Assembly (NCBI GenBank): GCA_051294375.1 | Contig: CM119265.1 | Span: 6,705,489 to 6,769,488, forward strand | Length of the DNA: 64,000 nt | Direction: 5' to 3' | DNA from: Paraspadella gotoi | Lineage: Eukaryota; Animalia; Chaetognatha | Shown: piece by piece, positions 95-52,800 of the stretch | How the letters are laid out: every line of letters begins with the position of its first letter | Numbering within the stretch: position 1 is the stretch's first letter | Translations under genes and position numbers: made by a program | Notes under the pieces: generated by a model | Databases searched by the model: none | Told to the model about the DNA's origin: nothing | The model's input: only the letters and a program-made list of their open reading frames with translations

Positions 95-3000
95 CCAAAG
101 ACGCATCTTCGTCAATTTGTCCATCGCCGTCATCGTCGATCAAGTTGAAGATTTCCTCATCTATTTCTCCGTCGCAGTCATATCAATACCATCTCCCGCT
201 TTTTGATTCGTCTTGGAAACACTACGTAAAGTATTACAATGAAAATCTAAATTAATCTCGTAAGCTCTTACATTATTGTTTACATAGAACAAATCCTCGT
301 CCATCCTTCCATCTTCGTCGTCGTCTCTTCGATTAAAAATTTCCCTCGTCTATTTTACCGTCGCAGTCATTGTCGATTCGATCCCCCGAGATTTGTTTCG
401 TTTCTTGGCACTGCGGGACGTGGAGGCCGTTATAAAACCGATATTTCTACGAGCATGAAACTTTTTTTTTCTCCATAAAAACACACGAGCCACTCGAAGT
501 TGATACCGCGGCCAGGTCCTCGTCAATTTTTCCGTCGTCATCATATCCGCAAAGTTGAAAATTTCTTCCGTCTATTCAACCCGTCACAATCGTTTATCTA
601 CGTTGTCGCCGGCCAGAACCTCTGTCTGTCGCAACTGTGATAATAAATCGACAGTATAAGTTGAATTGTTTGTTTGTTTGATAAAAACGAAAAAAAAAAA
701 ATTTACCGCGTCCGAGATCCTCATCGACGTAGTTATCCCATCGTATCTATTTTGTCAACGTTTTCCTTCGTCAAATTTTGCCGTCACAAATCGTTTATCG
801 ATTCCATCGTTAGGCACGGTGGCTGACTTTTCGCACTGAAAATTATATCCGTGACATTCGTGAAAGCCTTTCCAGCCTGTCGATTGTCGACGTCTAATTA
901 ATTTGGTCCTTCTTTTATAGAAATGCGCATTTTTTCCGCAAAAATAAAGGTTGAGGGTTAGAAGATAAAGGTATTAGAGTAAAGGATTGGGGTTATGTAT
1001 TTGATAAAAGATAATAATTAAATATATTCAGAATTAAATTTAAGTATAGAGTTGAAACAGAAATGGTGGCGCCTTCGAAAAATAGTGCCGAAGATTTTAA
1101 CCATGACCAAATCTTCGTCGATTTTCCCATCTCGTCTTCGTCTTGAAGATCGAATCTTTCTTCGTCGATTCTTCCGTCGCAATCGTTGTCAATGCTGTCG
1201 CCCGGGAGGGCTTCAGTAGATCGACACTGTTCATTGAACAGTAAGCTTCAAAAAATTAACATTTATATTTTATCTCTAAAAAAGAGTTTTTTTTTTATTA
1301 CAAAGAATTTTATTGTCAACTTTTATAAATATGGTGTCACTGAAAGTTTTAAATTTTATTATTTAAACAAGACTTTTTAAAAGTTTTAAACGATCCTTAA
1401 CCTCAAAAAAAGTCAATGAAATCATTCCGGTTATCTTTTTGGAATGAAAAAACTAGTTTATGTTTATGTTATGTTTATGTTATGTTTATTGATGTTATAT
1501 GAAATTGAGTCGAAAGCACAACTCAATAATAAATTATACCTATATCATCTTAATATAAATAAGCATTTTACTTATAAATAAGCTATCTTGCCTCCTGACT
1601 TTGGACAGGCTTTGGTGGATTAAGGCTTCCATCACTCTTACAAGATAATGAATTATGTTATTTTATATTTTATGTTTATGTTTATGTTCCTCTTACGAAG
1701 TCGAGGTCTTCGTCCACAGCGCCATCTCCGTCGTCGTCTTCAGATTAAAAATCTCCTCGTCTATTGTTCCGTCGCAGTCGTTGTCGACGCCGTCGCCAGG
1801 GAAGACGATCGAGAGTTTACACTGAAGACAAACAGTTTAACCGGCGAATGATTGGGAGGCGTCGAGCCGAACCTCACCCGCTAAACTCACCAACGCCAAA
1901 ATCTTCGTCCGTCCCTTCTCGTCCCCAGTCGTCGTCAATCTCGTTAAACGTCTCCTTCGTCAATTGTTCCGTCGCAGTCGTTATCAACGCCGTCGCCGGC
2001 GGGTCCTTCGGTCAACTCGCACTGACCCGCGGAGCCGAATTTATGAAAGTTGAAACATCAAAGAAGCAAAACGTCTCAAACCGTCCGGCGTTACCGGCGC
2101 CAAGTCTTCGTCGATGTCGCCGTCGCCGTCGTCGTCTTCGTGCGTCGAACGTCTCTTCGTCAATTCGTCCGTCGCAGTCGTTTGTCACGCCCGTCGCCGG
2201 GAGAGGGATCTGATTGGACGCACTGTTTCGAAACGACCGTGAAAGATGAAATGTCGCGGTCGAGTCGGGAAACAAAAAGAAAAAGACCCAAGTTTATACG
2301 TCTCGAGATCTTCGTCGATTTGACCGTCGTCGTCGTCGTCGAGTCGATTGAAAATTTCTTCCGTCGATTCGACCGTCACAGTCGTTGTCGACGCCGTCTC
2401 CCGCGCGAGGGCGGCGTTGGGCTGCACTGGTTTCATCAATCGTCACAGATCTCTTCAGTAACGTTGGGAACGCGATAACAGTGTTACGTTTTGAGGGATA
2501 ATACCGATCCGAGGTCCTCGTCCGTCGGCCGTCGCCGTCGTCGTCTCTCTCGTTAAAATCTCTTCGTCCACTAGACCGTCGCAGTCGTTGTCCAATCCGT
2601 CGCCAGGCAACGACGCCGTTTTTGTGCACTGTGATCAACGGGCGAGATTTTGAAGGAAATAATTTGCACGTGATTCCGAAACGTTTTTGTTTATTCGGCT
2701 CTTCACTGATACTCCGGTTCAGGAGTCCAAGCTTTTATTCGATGTTCCGTAATCAAAAACAAAAAAACCCTTTCAACGTCTTCGTCCGTCTGTCCGTCGC
2801 GTCGTCGTCTTCGCCGTCGCGAATTTCTTCGTCGATCCGTCGCGTCGCAGTCGTTGTCGAGGCGTCGCCGGTCGCGGCCGACTCCTCACGCACTGATTGG
2901 TCAAGACATCAGGGAGAGTCGTGAAAATTCGTAAAGCTGATTGGTCGATTGGAGAACGAGCTCGCGCGGTAAGAAGAATCAATAAATCGTCTTTAAAAAA

Positions 3001-3300
3001 AATTGTCGCCATTCGTCCTCACACTTTTCACTCTTTACTACTACGAAGAAGCACGTACGTACGTCTTAGTATACTTTTGGTAGAAGCGCACGGAAATAGA
3101 ACATAGTAATTTTAGAAATCTAACTTTCAATCCTAAATCCAAATCTGTACCGGAGCCAGGTCTTCGTCAACGTCGCCATCGGCGTCGTCGTCTTTTCCAT
3201 CACGCGTTTCCTCGTCCGTCCGACCGTCACAGTCATTGTCAAATCCGGTCACCGGGTTTAGGTGCAGATTGTGTACACTTATTTTTGATTGTGTGTGTGT

Positions 3301-3381
<81 letters not shown>

Positions 3382-4489
3382 GAGAAAAAAAATAAAATAT
3401 GTTTAAGGATTAGATTTTGTGATAAGACACTTTTTGTTTTCCCTGAGCCTGAGGTCTCCAGATAATAAACAAGATAAAAAAGAATGTTAGGATATAAGAA
3501 ATATATGAAAGAAAAAAGGAAACATTGTTTCTCTTTTTGATCTTTGAGGCAAATATAGTATATAAAACTCAAACAAAATCAGAAACAAGAAGTGGCTCAT
3601 TCATACATTGTCAAAGTCAGTTAAATCATATTAATTGTTCATTGTTTGAAGAGCGATAAAAGAATCCATATGAGCTATGGAAAATGTCCGATGGAAGGAG
3701 TAAATAAAAAGAAATAAAGGAAATTTAAAGGAGCAATAACGAAGAGAGAGGAAAGAAAAGAAGGATAGTCGGAGCGAGAAAAGAAACTTATAATAGCGTG
3801 AGAAGAATCGACATAAAAAAGAACATAAAACGAGTGATAAAATGAGCTAAGAAGCGATTTTTAAAAAGGGAGCGATATATGTACCGGCGCGGTGTCTTCG
3901 TCGATGGCGTGGTCGCCGTCGTCGTCGCGCCCGTTGATCGTCTCTTCGTCGACGTCTCCGTCGCAGTCGTTGTCGACGCCGTCGCCCCGACGAGGATTCG
4001 TCTGCCTACACTGAAAACGATCCGGACAACTGTGGCACTGGGCAACTCTACACAGTGCTCGAACAGCGCGACTGTGCTCCGAGCTCAAGTGCGGCGTTCC
4101 CTCGTCAGGGAAGATAATTATTTTTTTAAAAGCGGAGATAAGAAAGAGGGGGGGGATTTGGTTTTCGCGGTTTCCGTTTTGATGCAAAACTGTATACATA
4201 GCGTGGGTCGATAAAGTGAAACAATCCAGTGTACACTGTACAGTGTACAAATGTACATACAACCAGGCAGATGTGGCACAACAACGCAATCATTCCATCA
4301 GCGTTGCGCAACAAGCAACGCCAATATATACGCGGTCCAGATATGAAAATAGGACGGCAAAACAATGAACTGGGGAACATTGACAGGGATTAACATACGG
4401 GAATGAAATTCCAAAAATGCTAGTGATGGCTTTACGCATAAGGTAATATTATTACCTGGGAGGGGTTAGAGAAGAGGAGGAGAGAGAGC

Positions 4490-4520
<31 letters not shown>

Positions 4521-4640
4521 CTCACCGGTGCGTTATCATTCGTCGATCAGACCGTCACCGTCATCGTCAATTCCGTTTCGAGTTTCTTCGTCGATTTCCC
4601 CGTCGCAGTCGTTGTCTCTGCCGTCCGCCGTCTGGACCTC
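95..4640 (-). CDS. Array of at least 14 tandem repeat exons encoding acidic DNDCDG/DDDGDG (PF11617-like putative metal/Ca-binding) repeats; gene may continue past the window start
   Basis: Exons at about 4524-4638, 3884-4011, 3150-3277, 2773-2893, 2503-2629, 2298-2427, 2093-2223, 1897-2022, 1697-1821, 1101-1227, 707-835, 507-635, 285-411 and 95-222. Most begin ag|TGY (Cys) and end at gt, phase 0. The intact exon at 3884-4011 reads CRQTNPRRGDGVDNDCDGDVDEETINGRDDDGDHAIDEDTAP. Most others have 1-nt indels. Confidence 0.8.
1583..1648 (-). ncRNA. Permuted (P5-type) twister-like ribozyme, element family 3, copy with complete P5
   Basis: Minus strand: TATCTTG-TAAGA-GT-GA-TGG-AA-GC-CT-TAA-TC-C-AC-CAAAG-CCTG-T-CCA-AA-GT-CAGG-AGG-CAAGATA. 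T1 CCA/TGG, T2 AC/GT, P4 CCTG/CAGG, P5 TATCTTG/CAAGATA; one mismatch each in P1 and P2. Followed by a hairpin tail and an ACATAA-type microsatellite (1455-1520). Confidence 0.7.
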
Positions 4641-4679
4641 AACAAAAACGACCACGAAAAACAAAACAGCTTTATTAAA

Positions 4680-4713
4680 TTAAAAACAGGAAAATAAAGG
4701 AAGGAAGGAAGGA

Positions 4714-4753
<40 letters not shown>

Positions 4754-24987: not shown

Positions 24988-25059
24988 CTCCCCGGCGGGG
25001 AATCGAACCCCGGTCTCTCGCGTGACAGGCGAGGATACTCACCACTATACTACCGAGGA
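24988..25059 (-). tRNA. tRNA-Asp(GTC)
   Basis: Reverse complement TCCTCGGTAGTATAGTGG...CTGTCAC...CGGGGAG. Confidence 0.96.
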
Positions 25060-30581: not shown

Positions 30582-30661
<80 letters not shown>

Positions 30662-31786
30662 AAAAAAAAAAAAAAACTAATGAATAAAGGAGAGAAATCA
30701 ACCAAGCTGCCAGTCGACCTACCATCCATCAATCTCGCTTTATCTTTCACGAGGTCCACGATCATCGAAAGAGCCTACAAGACAAAATCTGCGCTTCGCC
30801 TCTTTGTCGCCACCGTCTTCATATACGGCGCACTTCGCGAAATCCTTGCCGCCATCTTTCAATTTGAATTCGTGTGCGACTTGAGTCCCTACCGCGCTAG
30901 CACCCTTCGTGCCATCCCCGAGGCTCGACATCTCTGCGTCAATCTCAATGCCCCCTTCTATCGTTTGCTCATTCGCGCCTTCGTGGCGATCGTCTGCGTC
31001 AATTGGATTTCTGCCTTCGTCGCCGTCCTCGCGGCTCACAACCTCCTGTCGAAGACGGTGTTGACCAAGCGGCCGTATTCCGCCGTCAACGATGACTACG
31101 CCCTCGCTTACGTCAAGCGATTCCGCGCCGACGACGACTTTCGTTTCCTCATGTTTCTTCTTAGTCAAACGAGCAATTCGATGCACTCGGCCCTAATGGA
31201 ATTTGCTTCGCCCGAGTTCCACGAAAAATTGATCGAGTTCATGTGCGATAGGGATTGGGGGCTGGAGAAGCTGAAAAAGCTGCTGGGTAGTAAGAAGAAA
31301 ACCCTGAAGATCACCGACACGGACCTGCTCATCGTACCACCGGCCGTGCGAAAACTGAAAATGCTGGAGGAGATAAACATCTCCTCCAACAACTACTTAT
31401 CGGATCTAAACAACTTGCAAGATCAACGCGAGCTAAAGTCGCTAAAAGCCAAGGGGTGCAATATAAAGGACATAGGGGCCCTACTGAGGCTTAACCACTT
31501 GCGGCATATCGACGTCTCTGAAAACGACATTCGAGAAATTCCCAAAGGCATCAGGGCCCTGGAGAGGTTGGAATATTTAAACATAAAGAAAAACAAAATG
31601 GAATCTTTGCCTTTAGAAATCTTAAGCATGGAAAAGCTCATACGATTAGAAGTAGAGGAGTCAGTGTTGGATCGAATCGACAGGGACAAAAACTTTTTTC
31701 AAAGAGAAGATCCTGGTGTGTTCAAAAGGATTAAGACTCCCAAGTCCAAGTTCTATGAAAACGTTTATGCTTCCAAAACGCACTAA
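29653..31786 (+). CDS. LRRC8/VRAC-like channel subunit, paralog 1 (pannexin-like TM domain plus short LRR domain), about 542 aa
   Basis: Exons 29653-29865, 30125-30271, 30332-30567 and 30754-31786 join in frame (1629 nt). LRRC8 motifs: FEVLSPWWD, KCTP, YVNNACFE, DNFWLNWGRTKSTL, SSPC, DDFRFLMFLL, DWGLEKLK, then about 5-6 LRRs. Confidence 0.92.
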
Positions 31787-31895: not shown

Positions 31896-34800
31896 ATGGC
31901 GTTATTTACGAGGAAAGCGCTAGAGTTAATGCTCCCTGACAAAGGAATGCAAGCTGTAAGACCATGGTTTGACACAATTACTGGCCATATCGCAGGTACT
32001 TAAGTACTTACGAACTTTTCTCTCCATTATTGTTATTTCAAACTTGCTGTTGAGCAACATACTGTTTGGTTTTATTGTTACTCTTGCAGAAGCCATGTCG
32101 GTTATTTCGTTAGTGGCTATTTCCCTGAAGATCTTCGTTGGTTTCACCACTTTTGTCCGTTGTGTCCCGACGTCTGAAAATTTCAGCAATGATACTTCGT
32201 CAACTGTTCAGCCAGAAACAATTTGCGATGATATGCAATGCACCACGTCGGGAGGAAGGCTGGACGATTCGCAATCTCTGCCCCAGCTTCCGTACAGGTT
32301 TGACAACATACATTATATGACAGTTAACATTAATTTAATGTAAATAAAAAAATCTTTAAAGATAATTGATCTCGCCAGACGAGAGGAGGAACTAAAGAAA
32401 TACAAAAAATTGATGCGATGATAACCAATAACCAATAATTGATGCAATGATAACCAAATGATTGATGCGATGATAACTAAATGATTAATGCGATGATATT
32501 CATTCATTGACACGATGAATCATCGTAAATAAAATAAACAAATGTGTGTATGAGTGAGAGAAAGAGAGAGAGAGAGAGAAAGAAAGAGACGTCACAAAGA
32601 AGTTAAAGCGATCCAAAATCGAGATAATAAAGAAACGCGTGTATTACTATTAGTGAGAGAGAGAGAGAGACAGAGACAGACAGAGAGTGTACGAACACTT
32701 GCGGGTTCGTGCGACTTCGAAATCGTGAATCTAATTTGACGCCGTCGATCAAATAACTTTGATTCTAAACTTAAAACATATTCTGACTAAATCCCGGAGC
32801 TGTAAAATAATTCCACAAAAATCTTGGATGTAAATTTGGGATTTTGTATTGAGAAAAAAGCGCGGAATAAATGGCGATAATAAAAGTTTTTAGAAGGAAA
32901 AAAATAATCAAAGAGAGAGAGTACGAACACTTGCGGGTTCATGCGACTTCGAAATCGGGAATCTAATTTGACGCCATCGATCAAATAATTTTGTTTTCAA
33001 ACATAAAACGTATTCTAAATCTCGCAGCCGTAATAAATCCACGAAAATCTTAGATGTAAATTTGGGATTTTGTATTGAGAAAAAAACGCGGAATAAATGG
33101 CGATAATAAAAGTTTTTAGTAGAGCCAAACTTTTTTAATGGGGTGGGTCAGAAGTTTGATTTGGAAACCTTCCCAAATGAAACTACATACATTTCTGAGA
33201 AAACTTTCATTGGACCAAAATTTTATAAAATGGCTAGAACCACTAGTAATTAATTTTTTAATATTTATTTATAGATAGGAAATGTCTAAAAAATTTTTTT
33301 GAATTTTTTATTTTTTAAAGCAGATTCAGATAGCTTATGAAAGGTTGTCTGTACAAAGTATAATTCTTTTTTCAATATATTGATGATAAGTTGGTTAAAA
33401 TTAGGAAAAATCTTTAAAAATCATCATCGTTATCATCCGATGATTTTAGCAGTTTTTGCTAATTTTTAGTAATAAAACATCAAAATTTTAAAAAGTTGTA
33501 ATTATATTTTTTGCTCTATCAGCTCTATCAGAATCTATTAAAAAAACTTAAAATATAAAAAAAAATTTTGACATTATATAGCAATATAATAATATTAATT
33601 AGCGAATTCGGAACGGTTCGGAACATTTTTGAAAAAAAAAGTTTTAACACAATAATTAATACCAATAATGGTGTTGCGGATTTCGGGCCGCAAAAAAGAT
33701 CAATCCTACAACTACCCAGTAGCTACTTTTTCCTATCAGGAAAAACGTTTTATTAGAGTTTTATTTGTAGTTTATTAGCATCCTTTATTTCCAACAGTGA
33801 GGGCCGTTGCCAGGCCAAGGATTTCCTATCCAGGGAAATTTGGGAATAGTTCCTCTATGATCCTGAGTCCTGAGGTCCGCTGGTCTTGCTGGGGCGCAGT
33901 TGTTCTTCTTTCTTCTTGGGAGGCCGCTGAACTGCCCCCAGAAGCCTTGTTACACTCCTTTTTATAGAAAAACCTAGCCTACCCTTCCTCCTCATCTACA
34001 TAAAATAGAGCATCTCATTGGTGCAAGGCTAAGGAACCTGAGTACCCCTTGAGGACCCTCAGCTCTCCTCTCTCTCCTATTGGCTGAGGGCTGTGGTATC
34101 TGAGATCTCTCTTTCCTCCTCTCTCTCTTGCTGAGGTGTGCAAGCTTGTCATTGGTTCTTCTGTTTTCCCGCCAACTTCTCATTAGATGATCTATGCTGA
34201 GATAGCTGACATAGCAGAGGAGTGACGAGAAAACTTGCTCAGGTACCTATCGCTTCCTTCCTAACCTCAGGTAGGTGAGCAGGGGCGAGCAGACTAGCTC
34301 AGGTACCTCTCTCTTCCTTCCTAACCTTAGGTTGCGGAGCAGGGGCGAGGAGACAAGCTGAGGAACCTCTCTCTTCCTTCCTATCCTTAGGTTGCTGAGC
34401 AGGGGCGAGAAGACTAGCTCAGGTACCTCTCTCTTCCTTCCTATCCTTAAGTTGCTGAGCAGGGGCGAGATCCCTAGCCTCGTAACAAATGGATTAGTTT
34501 AATGCTGTTCCAATTAAAATTTGAATTCGGTCGGCTACCGCTATTTTTAGAAGAAAAAAAATAATCAGAGAGAGAGAGAGAGAGAGAAAGATAGAGAGAA
34601 GCTGGACATCCGCTGGACCGCCGCTGCAGAGCTGAACTCGTTTTTAAACGAATCTGAATAGGGTCCAACTCCTTTCCTTTCTATAAAATATATATATATA
34701 TATATTGGTTGTACCAATTTCATATATATTAAAAAATAAATATTTGGGTATTGAGCCATATAAGAAATTTTTTTACATTGAAAGTATACTTAAAAATGTA

Positions 34801-35021: not shown

Positions 35022-38000
35022 AGCAACATATAATTAAAAGAGAGAGAGAAGCTGAACAGCCCTGTTACTCGTCCAATTAAAAAACAGTACCTATGGCGCC
35101 GAAGGTAGCGCGAGCTCGTCTTAACCCAAAGGATTCGGTGTCGCGCCCTGCTGATTCATACTAGAAAAGCGAAAGAAAGTTTTAAAAAAGGGAGAAACGG
35201 AAGGTGAACTGCTCGCGGCATCGTCTTCTACATTGGTGAGGCCATAATATATATATATTTTTTTTTTTAAGAGAGAGAAAGAGAGAGAGAGAGAAAGAAG
35301 CTGGACAGACGCTGCAGAGCCGGAACTCGTTTTTAGACAAATCAGAAGAAGCAGTGACAGAGAAAAAAGAGAGAGAGAGCGACATATAATTAAAACATTT
35401 TTGTTTTGTAAATAAAACATAAACAAATATGAATATTGATATGTAACATGATAATTTCAAAGATCTTGATGATTAGAAGCCATATCTAAATTTTTAACTC
35501 CCTATGATATCACAGTTTCAATAGTCATGATAGTAAAAAAGCGTGACGCTGACGACGACAAAGAAGCTTAGCCGAAACAAAATCTAGCCAAGACGGGCTT
35601 TAGCCCGTCTGGCGAGATAATAAGTACTTTAAACTTTTAATGTCTTATATTTTCATAGTCAAAGGTTGTTCATGGATGCATTCTGCACTGAAAAACTTGG
35701 ATTTTATGCTCAGGACTTAGGTAAGAAAAATAAACGTTGCTCTAATTCAGCGTGTTGAGCTCGAGTTAAATACAAAATTTATGTTATCAAGGATATCTTC
35801 TTTTTGGACAAACCTGTCTACTAATGATAGTGGATAATTTTTGGCTAAAGTGGTCCAGAACAGGTTAGGAGGGGAAACAAACAAAACGAAAAAAAAAGCC
35901 TGACATTTATTTGAGATATCTTTCAGCATCAAAAATGAAGTCATTTGTTGGATTGGCAAAGTCTTGCCTAAAAAATCCCTGCACGCAAAAATTAGTAAAA
36001 ACACAATTGGACCGAGTTCGTGGAGAACGGCCGGAACTAAAAGACGCGCTGAAAATTGGTAAACTATCGTCATTTTTGGTCGCTAAAAATTAAGTTAAAA
36101 TTTTTCGGTTTTTAACCAGGTCACCTGACAAGATTATCGGAAGCCGAAATTAGAGAGGCTGTGGTTTTGTCTGACAAGGCTCTTCATACAGCAGACAAAG
36201 AAGCCGAATCGTGCGTACTCGCAAACGTAACTTCTTTAGTTTTATTATTTTTTTTTATTTTTTTTTTTATAATCGCGATTTCTTAACAGGTTTATGTGTC
36301 GAAAACAGTTGGTAAAGTTGTAGTTGCATTGGTGTTTCTTGTAGTCGGCGTTCAACGGGTAATAAACAAGGATTTTGATTTCACGTTTCTATGCAACGCT
36401 TCTCATTTGAACCGGCGAGAAAGTTTTGGAGAAAATCTGTATTTTAAGGTATCTTGTATATTTCATTACAAACTGAAACTGTAAAAAAAAAACTCTATTC
36501 TAAAAAAAAAAAAAAAAAATTATCTAATATAACTTTTATTTGCGCAGCGGAGCAACTCTAAAATCCATTTTTGTGTGTCTGTTTGTTAGTCTTTCCCATT
36601 TTTATTTAAAATATTTATAATTTAAGTAATATTATTTCATTTTAATTAATATTTGGTAAAAAGTTTATTATTATCATTATTAAATGAATATGTTTATACT
36701 TGTATACAATGTGAAAATTTTTAAAAAAGTGGTTAAATAATAATAAATATTTGTTTTACATATTTTATGCTTATATTGTAAAATAAGTAATAGGACGTAT
36801 AAAAATACATTTACATAATCAGAAAGTTAATGTAGTATAGTTCGATCGATTAAATCCATTTAGTTAATATATAATAAATAAATCATGATGCGATAATCCG
36901 TTGTTTTTTAATATTAGAGAAAGCAAAGTGTTTTGGAAATTGTTACAACAATTTTTATTTAAGATACGGACATGTTTCGGCTTGTTGAATGCTGATGAAG
37001 GCTTGAAATCAACAAGCCGAAACATGTCCGTATCTTAAATAAAAATCGTTGTAACAATTTCTAAAACACTTTGCTTTCTCTAATAAATAAATCGTAGTCA
37101 TTAATATTAATATTATTACTAGTATTATTTAATATATGTGGTGCAATACATTGAAATTACCGTTTCATGTTTCATTTCAGATCGCGAAATACGAGCATTT
37201 CATTTGCTCCAATAAACTAGGACCAATTTATGAATATTTAATGATTCTTTTTAACATACTGCTCGTAACTTACATATGTTCCTCAATTGCAGCAATAGGA
37301 AAATTCTATTTTATAAGAAAGCCTATTCATAAGGTAAGAATAAAATTACTGTATTCGCTGGAAAAGTACAGAAGAATTTAAATAAGACAACAGGTGGACT
37401 CACGTTTTTTGTTTGATTTACAAATTGGACTAGGTACTTCATGATTATGATCAAACCATAGAAGAAGAAGAATTAGAGAAGAAACTAAAGACGGAGAAAA
37501 CTAAGGATATCATTTTTCTTCTATTTTTTCTTTACACTAAAGATAGGAAATGTTTTGAGGTATGTGTTATTCTAAGACACTAGAACATGATTGAAATCTT
37601 AATGAATTACGACGCAAATCATGTTTTCAGAACTTCAAAGAATTTCTCTCGCCTTTTTTCCACGACGATTTGATTCGATTGGCCTCTCACAAAGAATGGG
37701 ATGGAGCGACCATCGAAAGGCGAAAGATTCCCATCGGTGACGGTTTTTTTGAAATCTCCCTCGCCGATCTCGACCTTAAAGAATTGCCTCCTTGCCTCTT
37801 TAAAGTCGAGAAGTTAAAAGTGAGTTATTTTTTCTAGTATGAAATTGGTACAACCAATATAAAAATTATCCATGACTTTGGACAGGCTTTGGTGGTTTAG
37901 GTATGTAACTTTATTGTAAGCTTAAATTAAGAAAGCGGCGTTCGGAGTGAACAGACAGATATATAGATAACAAGAAAGGTTCGAATCAAAGATGTATAGT

Positions 38001-41000
38001 TGATTTTTTATTAGGTAAAAACAATATCGTATCAGCCTAACAGTGGCGGGTAGAGAAAAAGTGGACCAATCCTCTTTTTTTTTTTTTGTGGGCCCAATTG
38101 ATGAGTCAAGCTCTTCCCAACCCCTTAACTCAGCAAGAGTAGGGTTTGGGTACATTAATGTCATATTATGTTTAGATTTTAAGATTTCCTACTGATACAA
38201 AAATATTTGACAAAATTAAAAGCTATTTTTTTGCTTATATTTTTTATGAAATTGGTACAACCAATATAAAAATTATCCATTCATTTAATAAATAAGCTAT
38301 CTTGCCCCTGACTTTGGACAGGCTTTGGTGGTTTAAGGCCTCCATCACTCTTACTTATATAATTTTATATTAACCCCATGAGCTTTTTCAGCCCCCTCAC
38401 CCTCGACTTTATGGAGGGTGCCCAGTACCCACAGTCCAGTGCCTACCCCTCTACTATGTAAAGTCTAAACGCCCCTACAGCCCACGATATTTAAGCCGTA
38501 AGCAGTTAATCAGATGATAAGTTTTTATTTTTTTTTAATTATTTTTTTTAGTCGGATCTGCTTATCAGCAGATCCCGACTCTATAATTCACTTTGTCGGT
38601 CCGTCGGTCCGCCCCCTCAATATTTTTGGGCACTAACTTATATCATGTCAGAACATCGAATTATGATAAATTATGCAAAAAAAAGGATGTCCGTCCGTCC
38701 GTCTGTCCGTCCCACCTTAGCAAAAAACACCAATTACTCGTGATTGGATGGATGGATTGGAATGAAATTTTGTGTGTGGGTAGGGAAGTGTGTGATTAAG
38801 CTGTATATGAAGTTTCGATGGAATCGTCCGAGTGGAAATGAGTTTAAATGGAAAAAATAAAAAAATAAATTTCACTATTTGAATACCAGTTACTCAAGAG
38901 TGGATGGGGCGATTGACTTGAAATTTTGTATTTGCGTAGGAAAGTGTGTGATTAAGCTGGAAATCAAGTTTCGATGGAATCGTTTTAGTGGAAATGAGTT
39001 TAAATGGAAAAAACAAAAAACCTGTTTCACTAATTGATTATGCTTCTTTTTCCTTTTATATTAAATGTAAATGAAGGATGTATTAATAAATCAAATAATT
39101 AATCAGTTAATTAATCAATTAGTCAATTAATTAATCAATAATTAATTAATCAATCAATCCGTCCATCCGTCCCATCTTAGCAAATAGCTCCAATAACTCG
39201 TAATTGGCTGGTTGGATTGGAATGAAATTTTTTTGTGTGGGGAGGACAGTGTGAGATGAAGCTGGATATAAAGTTTCGATGGAATCGTGCAAGTGGAAAT
39301 GAGTTTAAATGGAAAAAACATAAGTTGCATTTACTAAATTCACATTTTCTTGAATCTTTTTTATTTATGATTACTAATAAATGTTTTAATTAATTAATTA
39401 ATTAATTTGAAAAAATGATACAATTTAAAAAAATTATGCAAGTTGAAAAAATTATGCAAGTTGAAAAAATTATGCAAGTTGAAAAAATGATGCAAGTTGA
39501 AAAAACGATGTAAATTGAAAAAATTATGAGTTGAAAAAAATGTGCGTGGAAAAAATGATGCGAGTTGAAAAAATGATGCGAATTGTAAAAATGATGTAAA
39601 TTGAAAAAATGATGAGTTGAAAAATTATGTGTGTGAAAAAAATTATACGAGTTCAAAAAATGATATGAGTTAAAAAAATGATGCGAGTTAAAAAAAATCT
39701 TAAAAAATATTGTGATTTATCATCTGATTAGCAGATTACCGCTTAATTATTGTAGGCAGATCCGATATTGTTTGCTCAAACTTGTTTTTGATACAGCTGA
39801 TATTATTTGTTACTTTTTTGGAGGTTATGATGTTTATTGTTATAATTATAATTATAATGTTTATAATTAATGTCGTTTTTATCGTGGTAGTTTAGGTGCT
39901 TAAATTGGCTGTGGTCATTTTATCGGTTGTATTGGTTGTTATGGTTAATATGGTGGTTGTAGTTGTTGTAATAATTATTGTTGTTGTAATAGTTGTAGTG
40001 GTTTGTATTGATTGATTTATTACGGGTATTCTTAATTTAATTTAATTAATCTTAGTTGTTGTAAAGTGGTTTTAATTGTTTTGGTTGCTATGGTTGCTAT
40101 GGTAATTATTAATTGTAAAAATTTTTTTTTGTTTTTTCTGTTCAAACTATTTTCACTCACACGATTCCACCTAAACATCAATCTTACACCTTTTACTTCC
40201 ATTAAAAATTTTTATTTAATTTAATTAATTGGATTTTAAGTCTAAGGGGATGATGAACGGATAACCTTTTCTATATATATAATTATTTATAATTTCATAT
40301 TTTGAAATGTGATCTACTGACCAACCAAGTGAATACTAGACTCGGAATCTGCGATAAGCACATCTAACTAAAAATTAAATCAACCAGGTTTTCTACTTTG
40401 TTGAGAAATTCCAGTTATCTACTTAATTTTATTTATTAAAAAAATTTTGAAAAATTTTATCTAGGAACTTGATTTGTCATACAACGAGGATCTTGAAAAT
40501 CTTAGCGGCATAGAAGCTCTTTCAGAATTGACATCGCTCAATATCGACGGTTGTGGGGTAAGTTCTGGCCCTATTTTTCAAAAGCACCCCATTTATGATC
40601 CTTAATTCTTAATATTAACCTGATTATTTAACCCTAATCTCTTACCAATTTCTTGACACTAATTCCTAATCTTAATCCTAAGGGAATCACTAATCTAATT
40701 CCTCTGCTTAATACTTAACCTAATCTATAACCCTAATCCTTATCCTGTAAATATTTTTCATTTTATGTACTAATTGTTGTCATTTTAGATAACTAATCTC
40801 GACGATATAACCGATCTTGGAAACCTGACAAGATTATATGCCGCTGACAACCCTCTTAAAGAAATTCCCGAAAATATCAACTCAAAATTTAAACTTCTCA
40901 AAGTGCTGGACATTCATGACTGCAAAAGTCTAAAAGATTTACCAAAAGGTACATACAGTTTTTAAATATAGGTACTTTTAAAATTAGGATTATAATAATT

Positions 41001-41329: not shown

Positions 41330-41495
41330 TTGAATAGAATAGTTGTTATGAGCAAGTGATCCCGAGCAGTCAGTAAGATTTGTATCAGTCTATAAGACCA
41401 CGTTGGAGGCGGGTCAAGTGCCCCGTCCCTCTGCAAGGCGGCGATACTACAGAGCTTTGGGATGGGAGGCGAATGACTTGCCTCCTAGAAGCTGA
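41330..41495 (-). mobile_element. Diverged SINE-like family 1 copy
   Basis: Retains GGAGGCAAGTCATTCGCCTCCCA and GAGGGACGGGGCACTTGACCCGCC on the minus strand. Further fragments at about 42228-42270 and 45020-45170. Confidence 0.65.
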
Positions 41496-43847
41496 CATCG
41501 TTCTTCGAGATCGAAGAAGATTTTTTAAATGGAGGTTTTTGTTAAAATCTGATTACCAAACAATATAAACGCTCCTGAGAAAAATTCCGATAAAAAATAG
41601 ATATAAAAACACTAGATTCCGATCCTGTTGCATCTGAAGGGCTCGCATTTTTTTCTTTGGTCAAATAACCATCATTTTGACATCAAACTATCGGATTCAA
41701 ATGGACTGGTCTGCCTGAAGAAAATATTTTTGACGCAATTTTTATATATAAAATAAAGGGATTTCTCAACTTCAATACAATGTAAACGCATTTAACATAT
41801 GTTATGATTTTACAATAAACTTCGAATTCAGGAATCCGATAGCCATATGTCTGAAGGGCTCTTAAAATTTTTCTTTACATTTTATTTGGTTATTTTAATA
41901 TGATATGATTATGGTAAAGTGAATTAGTCCATTTTGGTGAAATTTTTATTTAAAGTAAAAGTAAAAGAAGAGCTAATGATCGGAATTCTAAGAGTTTTCA
42001 ACTGGGAGTCAGATTTGGGAAAAAACTTTTATGGCAAAAATCTTCCAAAGAGGGGGTGGATTTTCTGAAGATTTTGGTTAATATTTTTTATATTTTTTTT
42101 ATATGTATAGATTTTTTTAAAACTTAACAATAGTAATATTGCCATAATTTTACATTGGCCGGTAAAAGAATATATAAAAAAAAACCTCTGGCTTTTCTCA
42201 TCAGAGCTTAGTCTTATGCTTCCTTCACCATTGACCGCTGAGAACGGTTGGTAGATTTTAAGCCAACAGTGTCATAATAACATGGTCGATGAAATCAGAT
42301 ATACCTTCATATCTAGATTGAAATCAGAAAAGCAAATAGAATCGAACTGGCTAATTGTATCTACAATATGGCATTCATTTAAATGAAGAGAGAAAAAAAA
42401 TTGTATTAGTTAAGAAAACAAATCCTAAAATTATGTGCTTCCTAATAAGGTTAAGTTTTGTAACGAGCGAGCAAAATAATTTTTTTGCGAGCAATAAAAT
42501 TTTTACAGAATTCGGTCTGCGATTTTTTTTTTTTTTACGTTATAATGATCACTGATCAGGCCCTGTACTATGAAATCGGTACAACCAATATAAAATTATT
42601 CATTCAATAAATAAACTACCCGGTCCCTGACTTTGGATTGAGGACTACTCAAATATATTTTTATTATACATATCAATTTAAAATTAAATTTGAAATCGTG
42701 ATAGCCAAAATTTGCAAATCGACGTGGTTTCGGTTTTGGAGATTCTACCGTATTCTGATTCTCTCAATTAATTTTTAAAAACAATCATTTGATAAGGATA
42801 TTATCATCACGATGAATTTAAAATTAATCAGTTTTAAAATATTTTAGACTTATTAATATTATTATTAATCATTGCTTCATTTTAAGGATATCTTAAGTAT
42901 CTTACAACCCTTAAATCAGTTACAGTTAATCAGTTACAAATTAAGACATAGTGAAGATCTTTTGTTCGTATTTTCCCTTCGACTTCGAGTGCCGTCGAAT
43001 TTAAAGAAAGAAAATAAACAAAATGGTGGAGCTGAGGTGTAGATTTCGTGTTTCGTTTACCGTTGCCAGCAGGAACATCGCGTTCTTTTGACTAATATTA
43101 ATATTTTTTTACGTTGAAACGTTGGAACTTTAAAATAATGAAAAATGACGACATCAAACAGCGGGAATGTAAAGAAAATTCGAAGAAAAGCGAATAATTA
43201 GGAGCAGGAGTCTACCTCCACGTCAGCAACGATTAGAACTCATTTGCAGCCGGTTGATGAAAAATATATATAAAAGGTTAAAAAAATACATAAAAATGTC
43301 GTATTATGCGCTAATTCTTTTAAAACATTTCTTGTCAAAATTTCTCGACTCACAATATTTTGCTTTTACAATTACTCGTCACTCTCGTTCACCAGAACAT
43401 ATACGTAGCATTGTTGTCCTCTTTTCAGAAAAAAAAAATGATCTGCGTTTACGTTTACTTCTCTTAAATTTAGACATAAAACGTTTAACGAGCATGTTAC
43501 GAACTACCGACTGGTTCTCCGGTATTTTTTCTTTCATCCATTGTATTTTTTTGTTTTCATTCGCATTGATTCAATGAAGTTGTTGGCATTTCAGGAAAAA
43601 AAATTAATTTAAAAGTTTTTGTACACTAATTCGAAGTTTACAATATATTTTTTGGAAATGATGCATGATGGATAATATATTTTCTTTTTTTTTCAGCGAA
43701 AATGATGATCACGAATATGATTAGTATTTTACACTCATCATATTATATGTCTTAACATGAAACTAGTTAGATTTAGTTGGAAAAAAAAAATTAACAATGC
43801 TCCAATGCCAAAGAAAAAATATATTTAATTGCGCTGCGACATGAAAA

Positions 43848-46800
43848 ATGATTTTCATAACCATTTTCCTCCTGGGTAATATGGTACCAATTACTTACAC
43901 AGGTAAGTTTTTTAAACCAGGATTTTTTTGTTTCTCTGAATGTTAACATCTTGTCGATCCGCACAGGAGCTACAGCAGCGAGATCTATCGCAGTTGCTGT
44001 CGGGGATTCGCCTGTTTTTAAGTGTCCCCTTTTTGACGCTATTGCCTGGATGAAAGGAACTGACATTTTATATGTTAAAGAGAAATATGTCTCGAAGCAG
44101 CCAATCAAGCACAAATACGGCTTAATCGTCGTTAACACTGGCTCAAGTGATTCCTCTGAGGTATTACTTAAAACTTGATTCTGTACTATAAAAAAGTTAA
44201 CAATTTTTTTATTGCCACTTATTAGGATTTGGGAAAAAAACATTACAATCAGTATCATCTGAACATAAAGCGCACTGATTTGTCCGATGCTGATATATAT
44301 CAATGTCAGAGTTCTGAGGTTTGATTTTTTTAATTTATAAGTCACTTGGAGATTAAGCATATGCCTAAATAATTTTTTTGTGATTTAGGGAAAAAAAGTT
44401 AGTACAGTTCTAAATGTCATCGAACGCCCAAAATGTAACCCGGAACGTTTGCCCTCTCCTTTAAAGGTGGGACTTATTCTTAGATGTTTTCTTCAATCCG
44501 ATATTTAAGCAGTAATAAAGAATATACATGATCGATCCAACAGGAAGGAGACAAATTATTTTTTTCTTGCTCTGTCCGATCGTCCGGTCCGAAATCGCCT
44601 GTGCTTTACTGGACAAAAGGACCCTTCTCCGATTTGGGACTGCTCAAGATGCCCGGTAATATTTGTTGTATTGCTAGTATCACCTCTGTAGTGTCTAGAT
44701 TTAAAAAGATTTTTATTGCTCCCACAAATAAGGTAGGAATAAAATTTATAACTTGGTCTCACCCGAAAATGGAAGATTGATAAGTTTTGCTTTTATTTCT
44801 CCGGTCTTTCCATCTCCGTACAATTAAATACTTATTCTAAATAAAATTGGAATTAAGGACATAAACCAAAGGCTATTTAATTACATAATTAAGGTAGCCT
44901 TTGATCTGTGTTCCCTAAGAATTAGGCAGGACTACTAAAAGTAGGGGCCTTAAACATGATTGGGCTCCCTGTTTATAATTTATGTCTATTACCCAAATAC
45001 TTTACGTGCAAAATTGTTTGTTGGCTTTTAAAACCACTATCAACAGACGGCCGGAGGCAAGTCATGAGCCTCCCAACCCAAAGGTCCGTGGTTCGAGCAC
45101 GGTGGCCGCCTAACAGTCAAGGGGGTAAAGATAGGTCATGGATTTCTAATTTTTGAACCGTTTAGTCATTAATTCCTCAAAATTGGTTACGGATTCAAGA
45201 ATCAAAAATCCCAAGAGTTACACTCTAGTCAGAATGCTTAAAAGTTATTTGTTTTTTTTATTTCTTCATATTTTGGGGTAATAATTAAGCCATAGGTTCT
45301 ATGAATACAATCACTATGATTTGTTGTTAATACATAAAAGTGAATAATTATTTTGAAGAATTACGAAAATAATTTGTTACTGAACTCATAAGTCTTAATA
45401 ATTAATAAGTCTTAATAATAAATAAGTCTTAATAATTTGTTAATGAACTCATAAGTCTCATTTCAAAAGTTGTTCATATATTTTTTCATGCTTTTGATAT
45501 TTGTCTCTTTATTTCAAATGTGTATTTGTGGATAAGGCGCTAAGTGGGCTGAAGATGACAATCCGCAACTTCTATAACCCCTCTAGCAGCCATGGAACGG
45601 GTCTTGGGCTTGGAACCAGGCTTGAGGGTTTTCCATGCCCCCAAGGCGGCTTACGGTCGTCCTCACGATTCCCGCAGGGTAGGTACCGGGTTGGGATTGA
45701 ACCCGGTACCTAGTGGTCGATCATGCAAATAATTTTTTTGTTCGTGAGTGCTCCACTCTAATATATACGGTAGGGCAGAGAGGATGTGAAATAAAAAAAG
45801 TGCTATCTCTGAAACCTATAAAACCTTAAAATATACCCATGAGACACTTAATGTGGTAGGTCAGAAAAATTCGATCAAGACAGGATTTTTTTTAAATGCT
45901 AATTTAATTTTTTTTTAATTTTTTATAAAAAATTTGAAGTAGTTTGGTGAATATGCTTATAATTTAATTGTCTATATATCTATCATTATCTATAAAGCAT
46001 AAGCTTAAATTTGAGACCTCCCCCAACTTTCTATTACTTTTCGTTATTGAATTATAAATAAGATTATAAGTTTTTTTAAAAAAAAGATTAAAAAATTAGT
46101 ACTTTTGAACAGTTTTTTTTCAATTAATAATTATTTTAAAATAAAAATTTAAAAAATTGAAATTATATTTAAAAAAATATTAATATAGTATATTGTAGTC
46201 GGGCATTGCCTAGGTTCACCTCGCCTATAAGCATGACACTTTAAGTTGTGACCCGGTGGCTCATTGAGTAAAGCTCATGACCACTAGGTACCGGGTTCAA
46301 TTCCTACCCGGTACCTACCCAGCGGGAAGCATTATGTTTGTTAATATTTTTAAACATTTGTCTATTAATAATATCTATCAAATATTGAGTGAGCTATTAT
46401 AATAAAAAATTTTTTTATAAAAAATAAAAAATAAAATTATTCTTAAAAGCTGGATATGAGTTGAATTAAAGCACTCGCCGACGTCTCGTGAATCAGTTAT
46501 TCAAATGTACTGAGAAAGTCATTATTGATAACATTATTGCTTTCTTTGATTTCGCTATGAAGGGATTTGGGTAATTTCTTTTTAACTTTTTATTACTAGA
46601 AAATTTTTGATAAGTTGTATCTTATCAAAGATTTGATAAATTTATACTAATGTTTCATGTATGACGAAAGAAACGATTATTAGATATTGTTACATAATGT
46701 TGCATGTTTCCAATTGGCTCAATTCCCTCCAAAAGTATGTCAGGATTGCATGTTTGTTGAAAGTGTAATGATATTGAAAACGGGTATACCCCTAAGTCCT

Positions 46801-49800: not shown

Positions 49801-52800
49801 TAATCATTTTATTCAGTCTTAGGGAGGCCATATTACTTATTAAAACTTATTTATTAGCCAAAAAATATATTTGACAATAAAATTAACTGGCTTTTCCAAA
49901 CCGCTACACTTTTTTTTTTTCAACATGGTAACAGTTAGTCGCCAACTCTCCATCAACGGTCTTGCCGAAAGTTTGGCACTTAGGCCGATTGAAAGTTTTT
50001 GCGAACGTATTCATTCGGTTAATATGCATTATGCAATATCCAGTTAAATGTAACGCATTCGGGGAGATTCTGATTGCGTTATTTCTAATCGCTATCATTA
50101 CTTATTGCTTAATTTCCATTTTTTTATCAGGGAAACGGAACAAGATGGAAGAAATGCCTATGGCCTGCAGCCCCTTTCCGATAAAAATTCCAAACGCGGA
50201 AGAAATGCTCATTGGGATAATGAACATAGCGCGAGATTAGGTATTTAAAAATAATTATTTATTACCCTGAATTCTAATTAAAAAAGTTTAGAAAACATTA
50301 ACATTTTTATTATTTATACCTATTATTACATTAAAGCTGCAAACTTACTTAAATTACTTTTCATTTTACTTTTAAACTTAAAGAGATTAAGTTAGAAAAA
50401 TTGCTAAAATTTTGACCATGTTAAGATTCTTCAAATGTTCAATTTTTTCTACAGCACGTGATTCTCGAAAAATTGTCCTGACCCATCCAATCGAAGTTGA
50501 GAGTGATCAGACTTCCGTGGCCTTGCATGATACGCCGCCAAACGTAAAGCAACACAAACGCATCAAATCTAAACAACACGTTGACAACAACAATAAAAGC
50601 CTCAGTCGCGCGTTAATTCATGCCGACGATCGAAAGTCCACCACTTGTGACGCTGGACACACTCCGAGAAACGACAGAAAACGGCGAGAAAGGCGGCACA
50701 AAGACGCTGGTGGAGGTACAAACTGCTATTTAATTCTGCACGAGTCGTGCAATAGGGTGGAGTAATGAAAAGATTGAGTGATTGGACATTATTTTTTTGC
50801 TGCCTATGGACATGTAATTAACGAATTTTAAAAAGTTTTTAAAAAATTTTAGCATAACTGTATAGTAAATTCAATTATTTATGTCGTAATATCCTTCTAA
50901 AATTATTAAATTTCAAAATGATTTTTTTATATTTAAGAACCGATTTGCATTATATAATATTTTAATGTTTGATTGCAAAAAGTTTATACTACAGAGAATA
51001 AAAAAAATCATAAATTTTTACCTTTCCCCCCCGTTTTGAAAGCTGAAGATGATAGAATTTTATATTTTTGATTCAACTTTTTATGAAGAATCTGAATCTT
51101 TAATAAAAGTTTAAAAAAAAAATTCTTATTTCATAAGAATATTATTCCAAACATATTGTATTTTACTCTATACTCTATACATGGTCTATTTTCGGTAGTC
51201 CTAGTTAGCTTTTATATGCTTATAATTCCGGTAATATTTCATCAATAAAGTTCATATTTGGTAAGAAGGTAAGGTATTATACTTATGAAAGCGATCAAAT
51301 GACGGCATAATTCACAGAATATTGTCATTTTAGTTGATAGACTTGGTAGACTGGTCACTACTTATAAGGGACTACGCAGAACTATGGACACGTGATCACA
51401 AAATGCGGCTTATTTCGTGTAATAGTTGGTTTAGTTGAATTTTTGCAGATAAATTATAAACCATAGGATTTCAGTCGCATATATATTTCATAATTATGTA
51501 ATAACGTTATTACACGCGATGAGAAAGTTACTGCGGCGCATCATATTCTTAAAAGAAACCATTTTTGGAATTAAAACTGCGATCTTCGAATTATTACTCT
51601 AAGTAAATTCCGAGTTTCCCTAATATTCTTAAGTTTTTTTTCCCTAGGTCTCGGTTCTCAGGAGCGCCGAAGTATGGAAACCTTGGACATTGACGAACCA
51701 GATTCTCTTGAATTAGCCTTAGATCAAAGTCTTGAGTTTCGAAAGCGTTCAAGCCACAGAGGTGAGAGCACAGAGTTTGTTAAAAATTGTAAAAATTTTA
51801 AGAAGAATAATTTTTTACAGACCCCAACCTGCCTCTTAGCTTTAGCTTAACTAATTTTGGCATTTTTAGCCAGAATCAAGTTTATAATTAAAAAAATAGG
51901 TAAGGTTTTTCCTTTTTTGGGGGTATTAATTAATACTTTATCCAGGAAAAACTTTGACTTTTTTTTATATAATATATATAATACAAATTAATGACAACAT
52001 TTTTACAATTTTAGTTTTTGCTTCTTAATCATAAAAAATAATTTTGTCAGCTCTATATTTGACAATACGAGATAAGACATTTAAATTTGGCCGGAGTGAA
52101 AGTTAAATTCCTTTACCAAAGCAAATGTCTGATAGAATTATTGTTATTGAAGAGACAGTAATTATTGTTGTGTTAGTGACAGAACCGTCCCTGAGCTTCT
52201 GATCAGGCTGTAACACCGTGTTACAGGCGGGTTAAGCGCCCCGTCCCTCTTAACTGCTAGGCGACCACCGGGCTAGAACCCCGGACCTTTGGGTTGGGAG
52301 GCGAATGACTTGCCTCCTGCACCAATGGCCGCTAATGAACGGTTGGTGGATTTTGGTCCACCATTTTATCAATTTCTTTCTTTATTAACAAGTTTGAGCA
52401 AACAATGTCAGATCTGCTTACGATAATTAAACGGTAATCTGCTAATCAGATGATAAATCACGATAATTCTTTCAATTTGTGATCCTAACTGATCATAACA
52501 GATCGTACCATACCAAACCAGTATCTGCGCCAATACATGTAAATCGCTTGCAAAGGATTAAACTGAACTGTTACTAGTACTGTTACCAGTTACTGTTACT
52601 ATTTTGATTAGTATTTCTTTTCAACTTGAATCATTTTTCAACACGCATTTTTTCAACTCGCATTTTTTCAACTCGTATCATTTATTCAATTTGCATAATT
52701 TTTTTCAAATCCCATATTTTTATCGTCGCAATCGCTTTGCGTTTGCGATGATATTGCTGTGGTTTTGTACATAAGTGGCTGGCTCTGCAGGGGCTCTTTC

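Follow-up and report, generated by a model that had tools for sequence, protein, structure and literature searches.

The window, a stretch of 64,000 nucleotides of the chaetognath Paraspadella gotoi (contig CM119265.1), holds copies and fragments of three families of short elements, in which a compact twister ribozyme of type P5 is embedded. All six ribozyme copies reported by a first-pass annotation, whose position numbers serve here as copy names, were recovered at their sites with a common type-P5 twister fold, both by coordinates and by a scored descriptor. The features are as follows.

14938-15157, plus strand: near-full family 1 copy comprising a leader hairpin, a tRNA-like head that lacks 14 nt of the D arm, the twister and a tail without poly(A)
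14938-14957, plus strand: its leader hairpin, starting TGGTGGA-N6-TCC
15029-15102, plus strand: its twister, copy 15028 (scored fold)
17533-17711, plus strand: family 1 copy, 5'-truncated within the head
17587-17660, plus strand: its twister, copy 17586 (scored fold)
28821-29078, plus strand: family 1 piece made of the leader, half of the head and the tail, with about 150 nt of other sequence replacing the twister
41363-41486, minus strand: decayed family 1 copy absent from the first-pass list, 32.9 bits with model R2
42217-42268, minus strand: family 1 leader and head start only
45050-45125, plus strand: family 1 head ending at P2'
52147-52363, minus strand: full-length family 1 copy, leader and head intact (head 52261-52332)
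52190-52257, minus strand: its twister, copy 52187 (scored fold)
45527-45718, minus strand: family 2 copy that keeps the 3' portion of its tRNA-like head, followed by twister and tail
45597-45676, minus strand: its twister, copy 45598 (scored fold)
46250-46328, plus strand: family 2 head with A- and B-box-like parts, ending at the 5' strand of P5
1574-1646, minus strand: family 3 copy with complete 8-bp P5, tail cut short
1594-1646, minus strand: its twister, copy 1583 (scored fold)
20514-20556, plus strand: family 3 tail only
20631-20662, 24721-24755 and 34701-34724: further family 3 tail pieces, the last inside a TA run
37838-37899, minus strand: family 3 fragment, its 5' end at the predicted cut site, with an internal deletion behind L4
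38245-38354, minus strand: family 3 copy with full tail
38300-38354, minus strand: its twister, copy 38297 (scored fold)
42569-42637, minus strand: family 3 fragment beginning in L4

The descriptor is generic, contains no family sequence and awards at most 21 points. The six copies scored 21, 20, 20, 20, 20 and 19, while in 160 local dinucleotide shuffles 19 was reached at 18 sites and at least 20 at none; five of the six therefore score above anything found in shuffled sequence. A strict descriptor was passed by two copies (15039-15096 and 38307-38348), with no compact match in 40 shuffles. The elements follow one another as in type-P5 twisters, both ends lying in P5, and the catalytic GA is present in all six copies. 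The cleavage loop reads UAA in four, AAA in one and UCA in one, with A after the predicted cut in five, and the pseudoknots T1 and T2 are each intact in five. P2 consists of two pairs on a 3-nt strand in every copy, instead of the canonical four pairs; a review suggests that such a shortening might disturb the active site (PMC5408937), whereas P2 length was irrelevant to twister in a large screen (PMC11662667). The end pair of P4, described in the same review as an essentially invariant G-C, is G-C in families 2 and 3 and A-U in family 1. In minimum-energy folds of single copies, the region around P1/P2 does not take up the secondary structure of a twister. The motif was also inspected by eye for an HDV-like or a hammerhead reading, and both were dropped.

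Only copy 38297 (palindrome in place of P1 at 38341-38336, predicted cut between 38335 and 38334) is a flawless twister. In copy 15028 (P2' 15039-15040, catalytic GA 15041-15042, T1' 15043-15045, palindrome 15046-15051, predicted cut between 15052 and 15053) an A replaces the U before the predicted cut, and its P3 is a near-perfect palindrome too. Copy 17586 has lost the A after the predicted cut and one T2 pair, and from its sequence its twister is probably dead. A T1 mismatch and the loss of the 3' strand of P5 by a 14-nt deletion mark copy 52187 (predicted cut between 52234 and 52233). Copy 45598 (palindrome 45659-45654, predicted cut between 45653 and 45652) has one mismatch each in P4 and P1, and copy 1583, with its 8-bp P5 complete, one each in P2 and the P1 palindrome.

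For family 2, the majority letters of assembled contigs correct precisely those positions at which the window copy is defective: the P4 pair at 45604 (877,755 of 888,943 in summed depth in run X4) and the palindrome centre at 45657 (631,015 of 642,395, with runs X5, X7 and X9 agreeing); they also supply the AAG before P2' (45668; 614,659 of 623,181). Among the variants listed, no frequent one falls on the catalytic GA, T1 or L4. Depth is level across the predicted cut site (bins 45632-45662 and 45663-45693), and the 3' loose ends in the contigs lead into unrelated flanks (agreement 0.38-0.54), not into a next unit. For the ribozyme part of family 1, and for family 3, majority letters, copy number and 5' ends are those seen in the window.

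The letters given earlier for T1, T2, P2 and P1 were read identically on re-checking, and the claim that paired positions co-vary across families holds: in the six-copy alignment 14 of 22 pairs differ on both sides (T1, two of three pairs between families; T2, one of two). The covariation score is 0.515 against a background of 0.205 +/- 0.038, on a base of just three independent lineages and with a structure derived from the same sequences. The 3' tails of the families do not align with one another (p 0.18-0.83), in keeping with the stated absence of flanking homology; an AAG ahead of P2' is common to families 1 and 3 and to the majority letters of family 2. A search of the window with model R2 found no fourth family. 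The proposed comparison with the Rfam twister models returned one weak match, to Twister-P5 (RF02684), which scored 27.4 bits, below the gathering score of 37.6, and had the wrong stretch aligned as its 5' half; at copies 15028, 45598 and 52187 Rfam found nothing.

As carriers, the elements had been called SINE-like, which fits families 1 and 2, both tRNA-headed and of high copy, and fits family 3 less well. The tRNA-like heads of both have A and B boxes, and their best alignments to the window's 14 tRNA genes have z 7.5 (family 1) and 5.6 (family 2); ARAGORN and Rfam call neither as tRNA. The elements are short (190-260 nt), non-coding and dispersed, and the window copies are single, without the tandem arrays of promoter-less ribozyme repeats typical of non-LTR retrozymes. 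Summed contig depth, which gives no true copy number, is thousands of times that of the flank: 5,000-12,000 times for the family 2 copy at 45527-45718, with a fixed 3' end at 45527, and about 4,000 times unique flank for the family 1 head at 45050-45125. In all three families the 3' end lacks poly(A) and simple repeats, and among nine copies examined one target-site duplication is convincing, the 7-nt repeat (28814-28820 and 29079-29085) around 28821-29078. The 5' end of family 1 is one sharp position in three copies, bounded once by this duplication. No polymerase III stop run occurs on the sense strand in two family 1 copies and in family 2, and we infer from the tRNA-like heads that both families would be transcribed by polymerase III. 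Family 3, for which no tRNA head was seen in the window and whose sense strand contains a T5 run, for those reasons need not be a SINE; one of its eight pieces lies in a TA run, and none is in tandem in the window.

The compact fold thus stands in all three families as a type-P5 twister with a 2-bp P2, and fails in one part, the reading of P1 as a 2-bp hairpin with a tiny loop. A 2-nt hairpin loop is sterically impossible; in each of the three families the two supposed loop letters complement themselves, and the six letters together form a palindrome that differs between families. Two of its three pairs change on both sides between families. It is intact in four of the six window copies and broken in two, as well as in the decayed copy 41363; that of family 2 is complete in the majority letters alone, the window copy having a defect at its centre, and in three contigs of run X7 a family 1 variant has a centre whose letters are not complementary. 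Within one molecule no stable P1 was obtained, one pair on a tetraloop costing 3.1-3.9 kcal/mol. In contrast to two monomers, a strand-swapped dimer was 11.7-13.3 kcal/mol more stable for three natural copies, with the same nested helices in both states and the pseudoknots unscored. In free co-folding, the palindrome was chosen as intermolecular helix in copy 38297, and P3, not the P1 palindrome, paired in family 1. Animal hammerheads with a 1-2-bp helix III on a palindromic loop are described as cleaving inefficiently as monomers and efficiently once dimerised (PMC4209133, PMC7229834), and on these models the palindrome likely pairs between two RNAs in the same manner. P1 is reported as dispensable in twisters (PMC5408937 and PMC11662667), so monomers of these families may cut anyway.

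The variant had further been taken as lineage-specific and as repeatedly recruited by SINEs. The first idea fell, as Naiad-type Penelope-like elements from other animals carry this compact core in their 3' untranslated region; the second found no support as worded, the Naiad cores pointing to inheritance from Naiad partners. A 3'-half pattern, outside which the 5' half lay, gave 62 matches in viral and genome collections, two of which (L118 and L119) also have the 5' half; the other 60, all 30 viral ones included, failed the full check. Searching with a pattern for the whole motif produced 3 viral and 66 metagenome matches, all regarded as chance since none of the 69 has T1, T2 and P4. Match L119 sits 160-240 nt downstream of a 1019-aa ORF (locus L136) with N-terminal GIY-YIG, DKA and YIDD, the layout described for Naiads (PMC8557442). 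Moreover, inspection by eye, which is not exhaustive, showed the core in 5 of 49 published Naiad ends, there with longer palindromes; literal motif searches of the Naiad supplement did not find it. The string TGGTGGA-N-TCC, ten fixed letters noticed after the fact, opens family 1 (the start position being fixed by the target-site duplication), L136 and 14 of 50 published Naiad consensus starts.

Thus families and Naiads have a 3' ribozyme core in common, with a linker of 6 nt in the former against 20-25 nt in the latter. The family tails show no likeness to that of the foreign Naiad locus L132 (p 0.21-0.85), and the alignment p-value of family 3 against this locus is circular, since L132 was found with a family 3 pattern. 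The window holds no Naiad ORF or remnant and no ORF flanking any copy; none of 297 scanned frames encodes a reverse transcriptase or GIY-YIG domain, and the L136 protein found nothing there (best E 1.4). A 41-nt match of L136 DNA to 45285-45325 (E 4e-4) had no counterpart at protein level and was set aside. A protein search aimed at the host's place among animals returned distant LRR matches only. According to PMC8557442, Naiads insert preferentially in TA runs, with strong 5' truncation and a 30-40-nt tail, and lack canonical hammerheads; the main text of that article does not mention twisters. A partnership of such short elements with Naiads was found in none of the papers searched.

Among known systems, type-P5 twisters (RF02684), as outlined in PMC5408937 and PMC6765202, share with the families the element order, the NAA loop, the catalytic GA, a 3-bp T1, a 2-bp T2, the C-G closing P3 and a P4 with U and AA in L4; the families differ in the 6-nt palindrome as P1, a P2 of two pairs against four and a conserved AAG-N before P2'. 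With Naiads (PMC8557442) they share the core near the 3' end of several consensi and of L132/L136, the lack of poly(A), the TGGTGGA-N-TCC start (family 1) and truncated 5' ends (family 3), whereas they have no ORF, carry tRNA-like heads in families 1 and 2 and have the shorter linker. The dimeric minimal hammerheads of Penelope-like elements and amphibian retrozymes, as presented in PMC4209133 and PMC7229834, also have a cut-side helix of 1-2 pairs on a palindromic loop, but belong to a different ribozyme class, and dimer dependence, shown there, is predicted here. In Schistosoma Sm-alpha SINEs, according to the account in PMC6765202, a polymerase III-type head likewise precedes a self-cleaving ribozyme in a short repeat; that ribozyme is a hammerhead in tandem units, unlike the twister in dispersed head-first copies described here. 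The T-variant twisters of Perere-3 RTE elements (PMC8501958) resemble the families in a weak P1 and a non-LTR retroelement setting, but are of type P1 and make up the element's 5' end at the cut, while ours are permuted and internal, 55-70 nt from the 3' end. The six-letter reduction of P1 and tRNA-headed short elements with a twister are new here.

In the best reading, the families would be non-autonomous partners of Naiads, two of them with SINE heads, and would carry a twister whose predicted cleavage is gated by dimerization. That all three families bear a palindrome-P1 type-P5 twister, are likely non-autonomous Naiad partners and likely cut efficiently only in paired RNAs is held at about even confidence. 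Each family would have taken its ribozyme from a Naiad 3' end, family 3 perhaps consisting of 5'-truncated Naiad ends. In a lone RNA, P1 could form no more than a single pair closing a palindromic loop of four letters; such a transcript would therefore largely escape cutting, and the Naiad enzyme would copy it back at full length. This fits the genomic copies, since these run across the predicted cut site. Two RNAs, in a tandem transcript or as two molecules, would swap strands, the palindromes forming a 6-bp P1 common to two active sites; both RNAs would then be cut at U|A, freeing a unit-length RNA or splitting head from tail. A bolder version, tentative and somewhat doubtful, makes the elements a new SINE class mobilised by Naiads, not LINEs, with the smallest natural twister, an obligate dimer in which the palindrome serves as a switch set by concentration or by a partner: lone transcripts would be spared for retrotransposition, and cutting, or docking onto Naiad RNA, would occur only when two RNAs meet.

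It is unlikely that single RNAs self-cleave with P1 absent or reduced to one pair, the palindrome being a leftover from a tiny hairpin. The dispensability of P1 and the tolerance of P1/P2 imperfections (as treated in PMC5408937 and PMC11662667) would allow it, and the family 3 fragment starting at the predicted cut recalls the twister-headed RTE elements of PMC8501958; this fragment is, however, one of four family 3 copies reaching the core, a result that random truncation would produce in an estimated one case in ten or so. Against self-cutting monomers also speak the central letters, self-complementary in three families with a CG/GC swap, the longer palindromes at the same place in Naiad relatives, and the level depth across the family 2 site, since efficient cutting would remove the promoter from every transcript. 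Distinctly unlikely, too, is that the families are not separate SINEs but parts of autonomous Penelope-like elements with a tRNA-type promoter, either their terminal repeats or their truncated 3' ends: the variable 5' ends of family 3, the frequency of pieces that consist of its tail only, one of them within a TA run, and its T5 run, which would stop polymerase III, agree with this, but three family 1 copies begin at the same sharp 5' end, in one case next to a target-site duplication, and no ORF lies beside any copy.

That the fold no longer cuts, and is kept as a recognition structure for Naiad reverse transcriptase or Naiad RNA, is improbable. The shortened P2 and P1, at least one defect in five of the six window copies and the weak cutting in vitro of minimal hammerheads from Penelope-like elements (PMC4209133) would suit such a role, yet the catalytic G persists in all six copies, the A after the cut in five, and family 2 lacks frequent variants at GA, T1 or L4 among those listed. 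A retrozyme or Sm-alpha mode, with tandem master arrays elsewhere cut to monomers or circles and dispersed copies as by-products, is very improbable. It would share the order of promoter and ribozyme with the Schistosoma hammerhead SINEs (PMC6765202), and non-LTR retrozymes have been proposed as non-autonomous Penelope derivatives (bioRxiv 10.64898/2026.07.22.740005); but monomers cut from tandems would start and end at the cut with the promoter 3', whereas the window copies are head-first and uncut, and the family 2 loose ends run into unrelated sequence.

If the dimer-gated partnership with Naiads is true, it names the missing ribozyme of elements reported without hammerheads, brings a second ribozyme class to the palindrome-dimer design of the hammerheads of other Penelope-like elements, and shows that tRNA-headed SINEs can also be driven by the enzymes of Penelope-like elements. 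Since Rfam misses the variant, thousands of copies per genome would then go unannotated. RNAs of 55-75 nt are short enough for a direct test of the ribozyme role at Penelope-like 3' ends.

The six copies of a compact twister-like motif claimed by the first-pass annotation were all found in the window, and a model made from them also recovered two damaged sites, with no fourth family found in the window:

15028, 17586 and 52187, one of the three on the minus strand: family 1
45598, minus strand: family 2
1583 and 38297, minus strand: family 3
41363-41441: decayed family 1 copy
37860-37919: family 3 fragment

In RNA sense each copy reads P5, AAG-N, P2' (2 nt), GA, T1', six letters, NAA, P2 (2 nt), C, T2, C[P3]G, P4, U, T1, AA, T2', P4' and P5', where P denotes helices, T pseudoknots and the prime a partner strand. 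A strict descriptor is passed by two of the six, with no compact site in 40 shuffles; on a scored descriptor (maximum 21) the copies reach 19-21, while 160 shuffles yielded no site at 20 and 18 sites at 19. The proposed covariation across families was confirmed, with two-sided changes in 14 of 22 pairs, well beyond shuffled and slid controls, in a six-copy alignment (92% of 118 cells paired) that represents only three lineages and whose structure was derived from the same sequences. In the suggested check with Rfam models, one copy was weakly matched (27.4 bits, gathering threshold 37.6) and three others gave no match. The twister-like feature of the three families is real, and the motif probably works like a type-P5 twister; it is classed as a twister variant and not as a plain type-P5 member because it departs from that type in three tested features, namely a 4-bp P2, a hairpin P1 and the Rfam score.

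Family 1, about 220 nt long, opens with a leader hairpin. Next come a tRNA-like head, which has A/B-box-like motifs and an acceptor stem of 7 bp, the directly adjoining twister, and a tail of 55 nt. A target-site duplication of 7 nt in one copy, the sole convincing case in nine copies examined, sets the termini of the family. In sequencing run X4 the summed contig depth of the head is about 4,000 times that of the flank, which is not a copy number. About 9 nt of the leader (14958-14966) could pair with the tail (15108-15116), which would enclose head and ribozyme within a helix. At 28821-29078, family 1 ends flank a different sequence of about 150 nt, containing an imperfect internal repeat, in the twister's place; a 7-nt duplication bounds the unit, which shows that it either lacked the ribozyme when it moved or has lost it since its insertion.

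Family 2 has a tRNA-like head unlike that of family 1, then the twister and a tail of 70 nt. Runs X4, X5, X7 and X9 (at most four samples, from three studies; X4 possibly from the source sample) supplied contigs for comparison with 44950-45850, and in all four the majority letters mend the P4 mismatch of the window copy, restore AAG and complete the P1 palindrome. Among the variants listed, most of the frequent ones affect the tail, the loop of P3, a single wobble in P5 or the N of AAG-N, and one variant turns the G-U of P2 into A-U. Summed contig depth in X4 is 5,000-12,000 times the flank, again not a copy number. A further repeat family (45756-45848, depth about 400-500 times the flank) directly adjoins the head. 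As for family 3, its window copies have no head, their 5' ends vary, tail-only pieces are numerous and a T5 run is present. The three tails do not align with one another, and a poly(A) 3' end is absent from all families.

The first-pass view of a lineage-specific motif was not upheld. In the PMC8557442 supplement, 49 ends and 50 starts of consensus sequences of Naiads, a clade of Penelope-like retroelements, were inspected by eye over about 300 nt, and the same kind of compact core, with AAG-N and 2-nt P2, occurs in five of those ends (Mgal, Bpla, Mphi, Scon and Mmer). Two of the five have the P4 and T2 letters of family 3, three show one T1 mismatch, and all have a palindrome-containing linker of 20-25 nt. 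TGGTGGA followed by TCC within 10 nt is found in 14 of the 50 starts and at the first base of family 1 (three leaders); this pattern has 8 matches in the window, with 0.37 expected. Independently of this, viral and genome collections were searched with a 3'-half pattern; of the 62 matches, two also possess the complementary 5' half. One of these follows an ORF of 1019 aa that has GIY-YIG (residues 139-230; 26.1 bits, above cut-off), DKA, YIDD and a weak resemblance to RVT_1 (19.6 bits, below cut-off), and a TGGTGGA-type start motif stands upstream; this arrangement is the Naiad layout. In the window itself there is no Naiad-type frame, and the tails of the three families are unlike that of this foreign element group.

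This locus, L136, and L132, L135 and L137 are short contigs in bacterial symbiont assemblies containing animal Naiad elements, one with the complete 1019-aa ORF, and are most likely host DNA remaining in those assemblies. The L132 linker forms a self-duplex of 14.7 kcal/mol and no hairpin. L137 (2683-2753, minus strand) has a compact core devoid of the entire palindromic linker; a second core, which is decayed, follows about 110 nt downstream. Of the PMC8557442 consensus ends inspected, the cnidarian-labelled Naiad-1_Movir bears a type-P5 twister with full 4-bp P2 and two palindromes, and about nine other ends share a different conserved palindrome-bearing motif, not parsable as twister.

Between T1' and the cleavage loop lie six letters that are self-complementary in four of the six copies of the window and also in the majority sequence of family 2; two of the three palindrome pairs show two-sided changes from one family to another. 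P1 had been read as a small hairpin. A single strand allows the outer pair only, which closes a loop of four letters and costs 3-4 kcal/mol. For the three natural copies evaluated, pseudoknots being left unscored, a strand-swapped dimer in which the two strands share a P1 of 6 bp is favoured over two monomers by 11.7-13.3 kcal/mol. Free co-folding chooses the palindrome helix for family 3 but the palindromic P3 for family 1. The dimer reading has a parallel in animal hammerheads, in which a helix III of 1-2 bp with a palindromic loop requires dimers (parts of PMC4209133 and PMC7229834). A rival reading is a mini-twister acting as a monomer; the dispensability of twister P1 (parts of PMC5408937 and PMC11662667) and three X7 contigs with a family 1 variant whose palindrome centre is broken count against the dimer.

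From the observed fold, palindrome, heads, abundance and Naiad likeness, we infer a likely course of transcription, copying and cutting based on the dimer reading. Polymerase III would transcribe families 1 and 2 as single RNAs which, each with one half-disabled ribozyme, would remain whole and be copied by a Naiad enzyme; were two RNAs to pair, for example in a tandem transcript, both would be cut. The level depth over the family 2 cut site fits the copying of whole, uncut RNAs. Of four family 3 sequences reaching the core, one fragment starts where the cut is predicted, which hints weakly at occasional insertion of cut RNA. A structure that does not cut and is used for recognition is a further rival. 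The families might also be ends of autonomous elements. Finally, a retrozyme-like mode may be considered; retrozymes are proposed to be Penelope derivatives in bioRxiv 10.64898/2026.07.22.740005, whose text lacks the words 'twister' and 'tRNA'.

Among known neighbours, RTE elements have 5' twisters (parts of PMC8501958 and PMC7761336), and Schistosoma SINEs carry a hammerhead (part of PMC6765202), whereas the present families carry a twister. In the passages of PMC10085705 consulted, no additional twister permutations are reported. Judging by the titles and opening abstracts of the papers found in literature searches, which covered few subscription journals and neither Repbase nor Dfam, none describes a tRNA-headed SINE with a twister, a natural twister that acts as a dimer, Naiads carrying a twister, or a SINE driven by a Penelope-like element.

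With its 35% G+C, many microsatellites, tRNA gene cluster and intron-split genes, the window is animal-like. Its other features include the following:

18399-27138, both strands: cluster of 14 different tRNA genes
29620-31783 (plus strand) and 40789-40962: parts of genes in which leucine-rich repeats come after a pannexin-like transmembrane region, an LRRC8-like layout; their similarity to database proteins is very remote
57429-59016, 59800-60340, 39376-39724 and 53510-54046: tandem arrays with units of 22, 23, 25, 18 and 179 nt
1-4640, minus strand: gene with many short repeated exons, weakly matching the Cu-binding_MopE motif

Family 3 copy 1583 is placed between two of the short repeated exons of this last gene.
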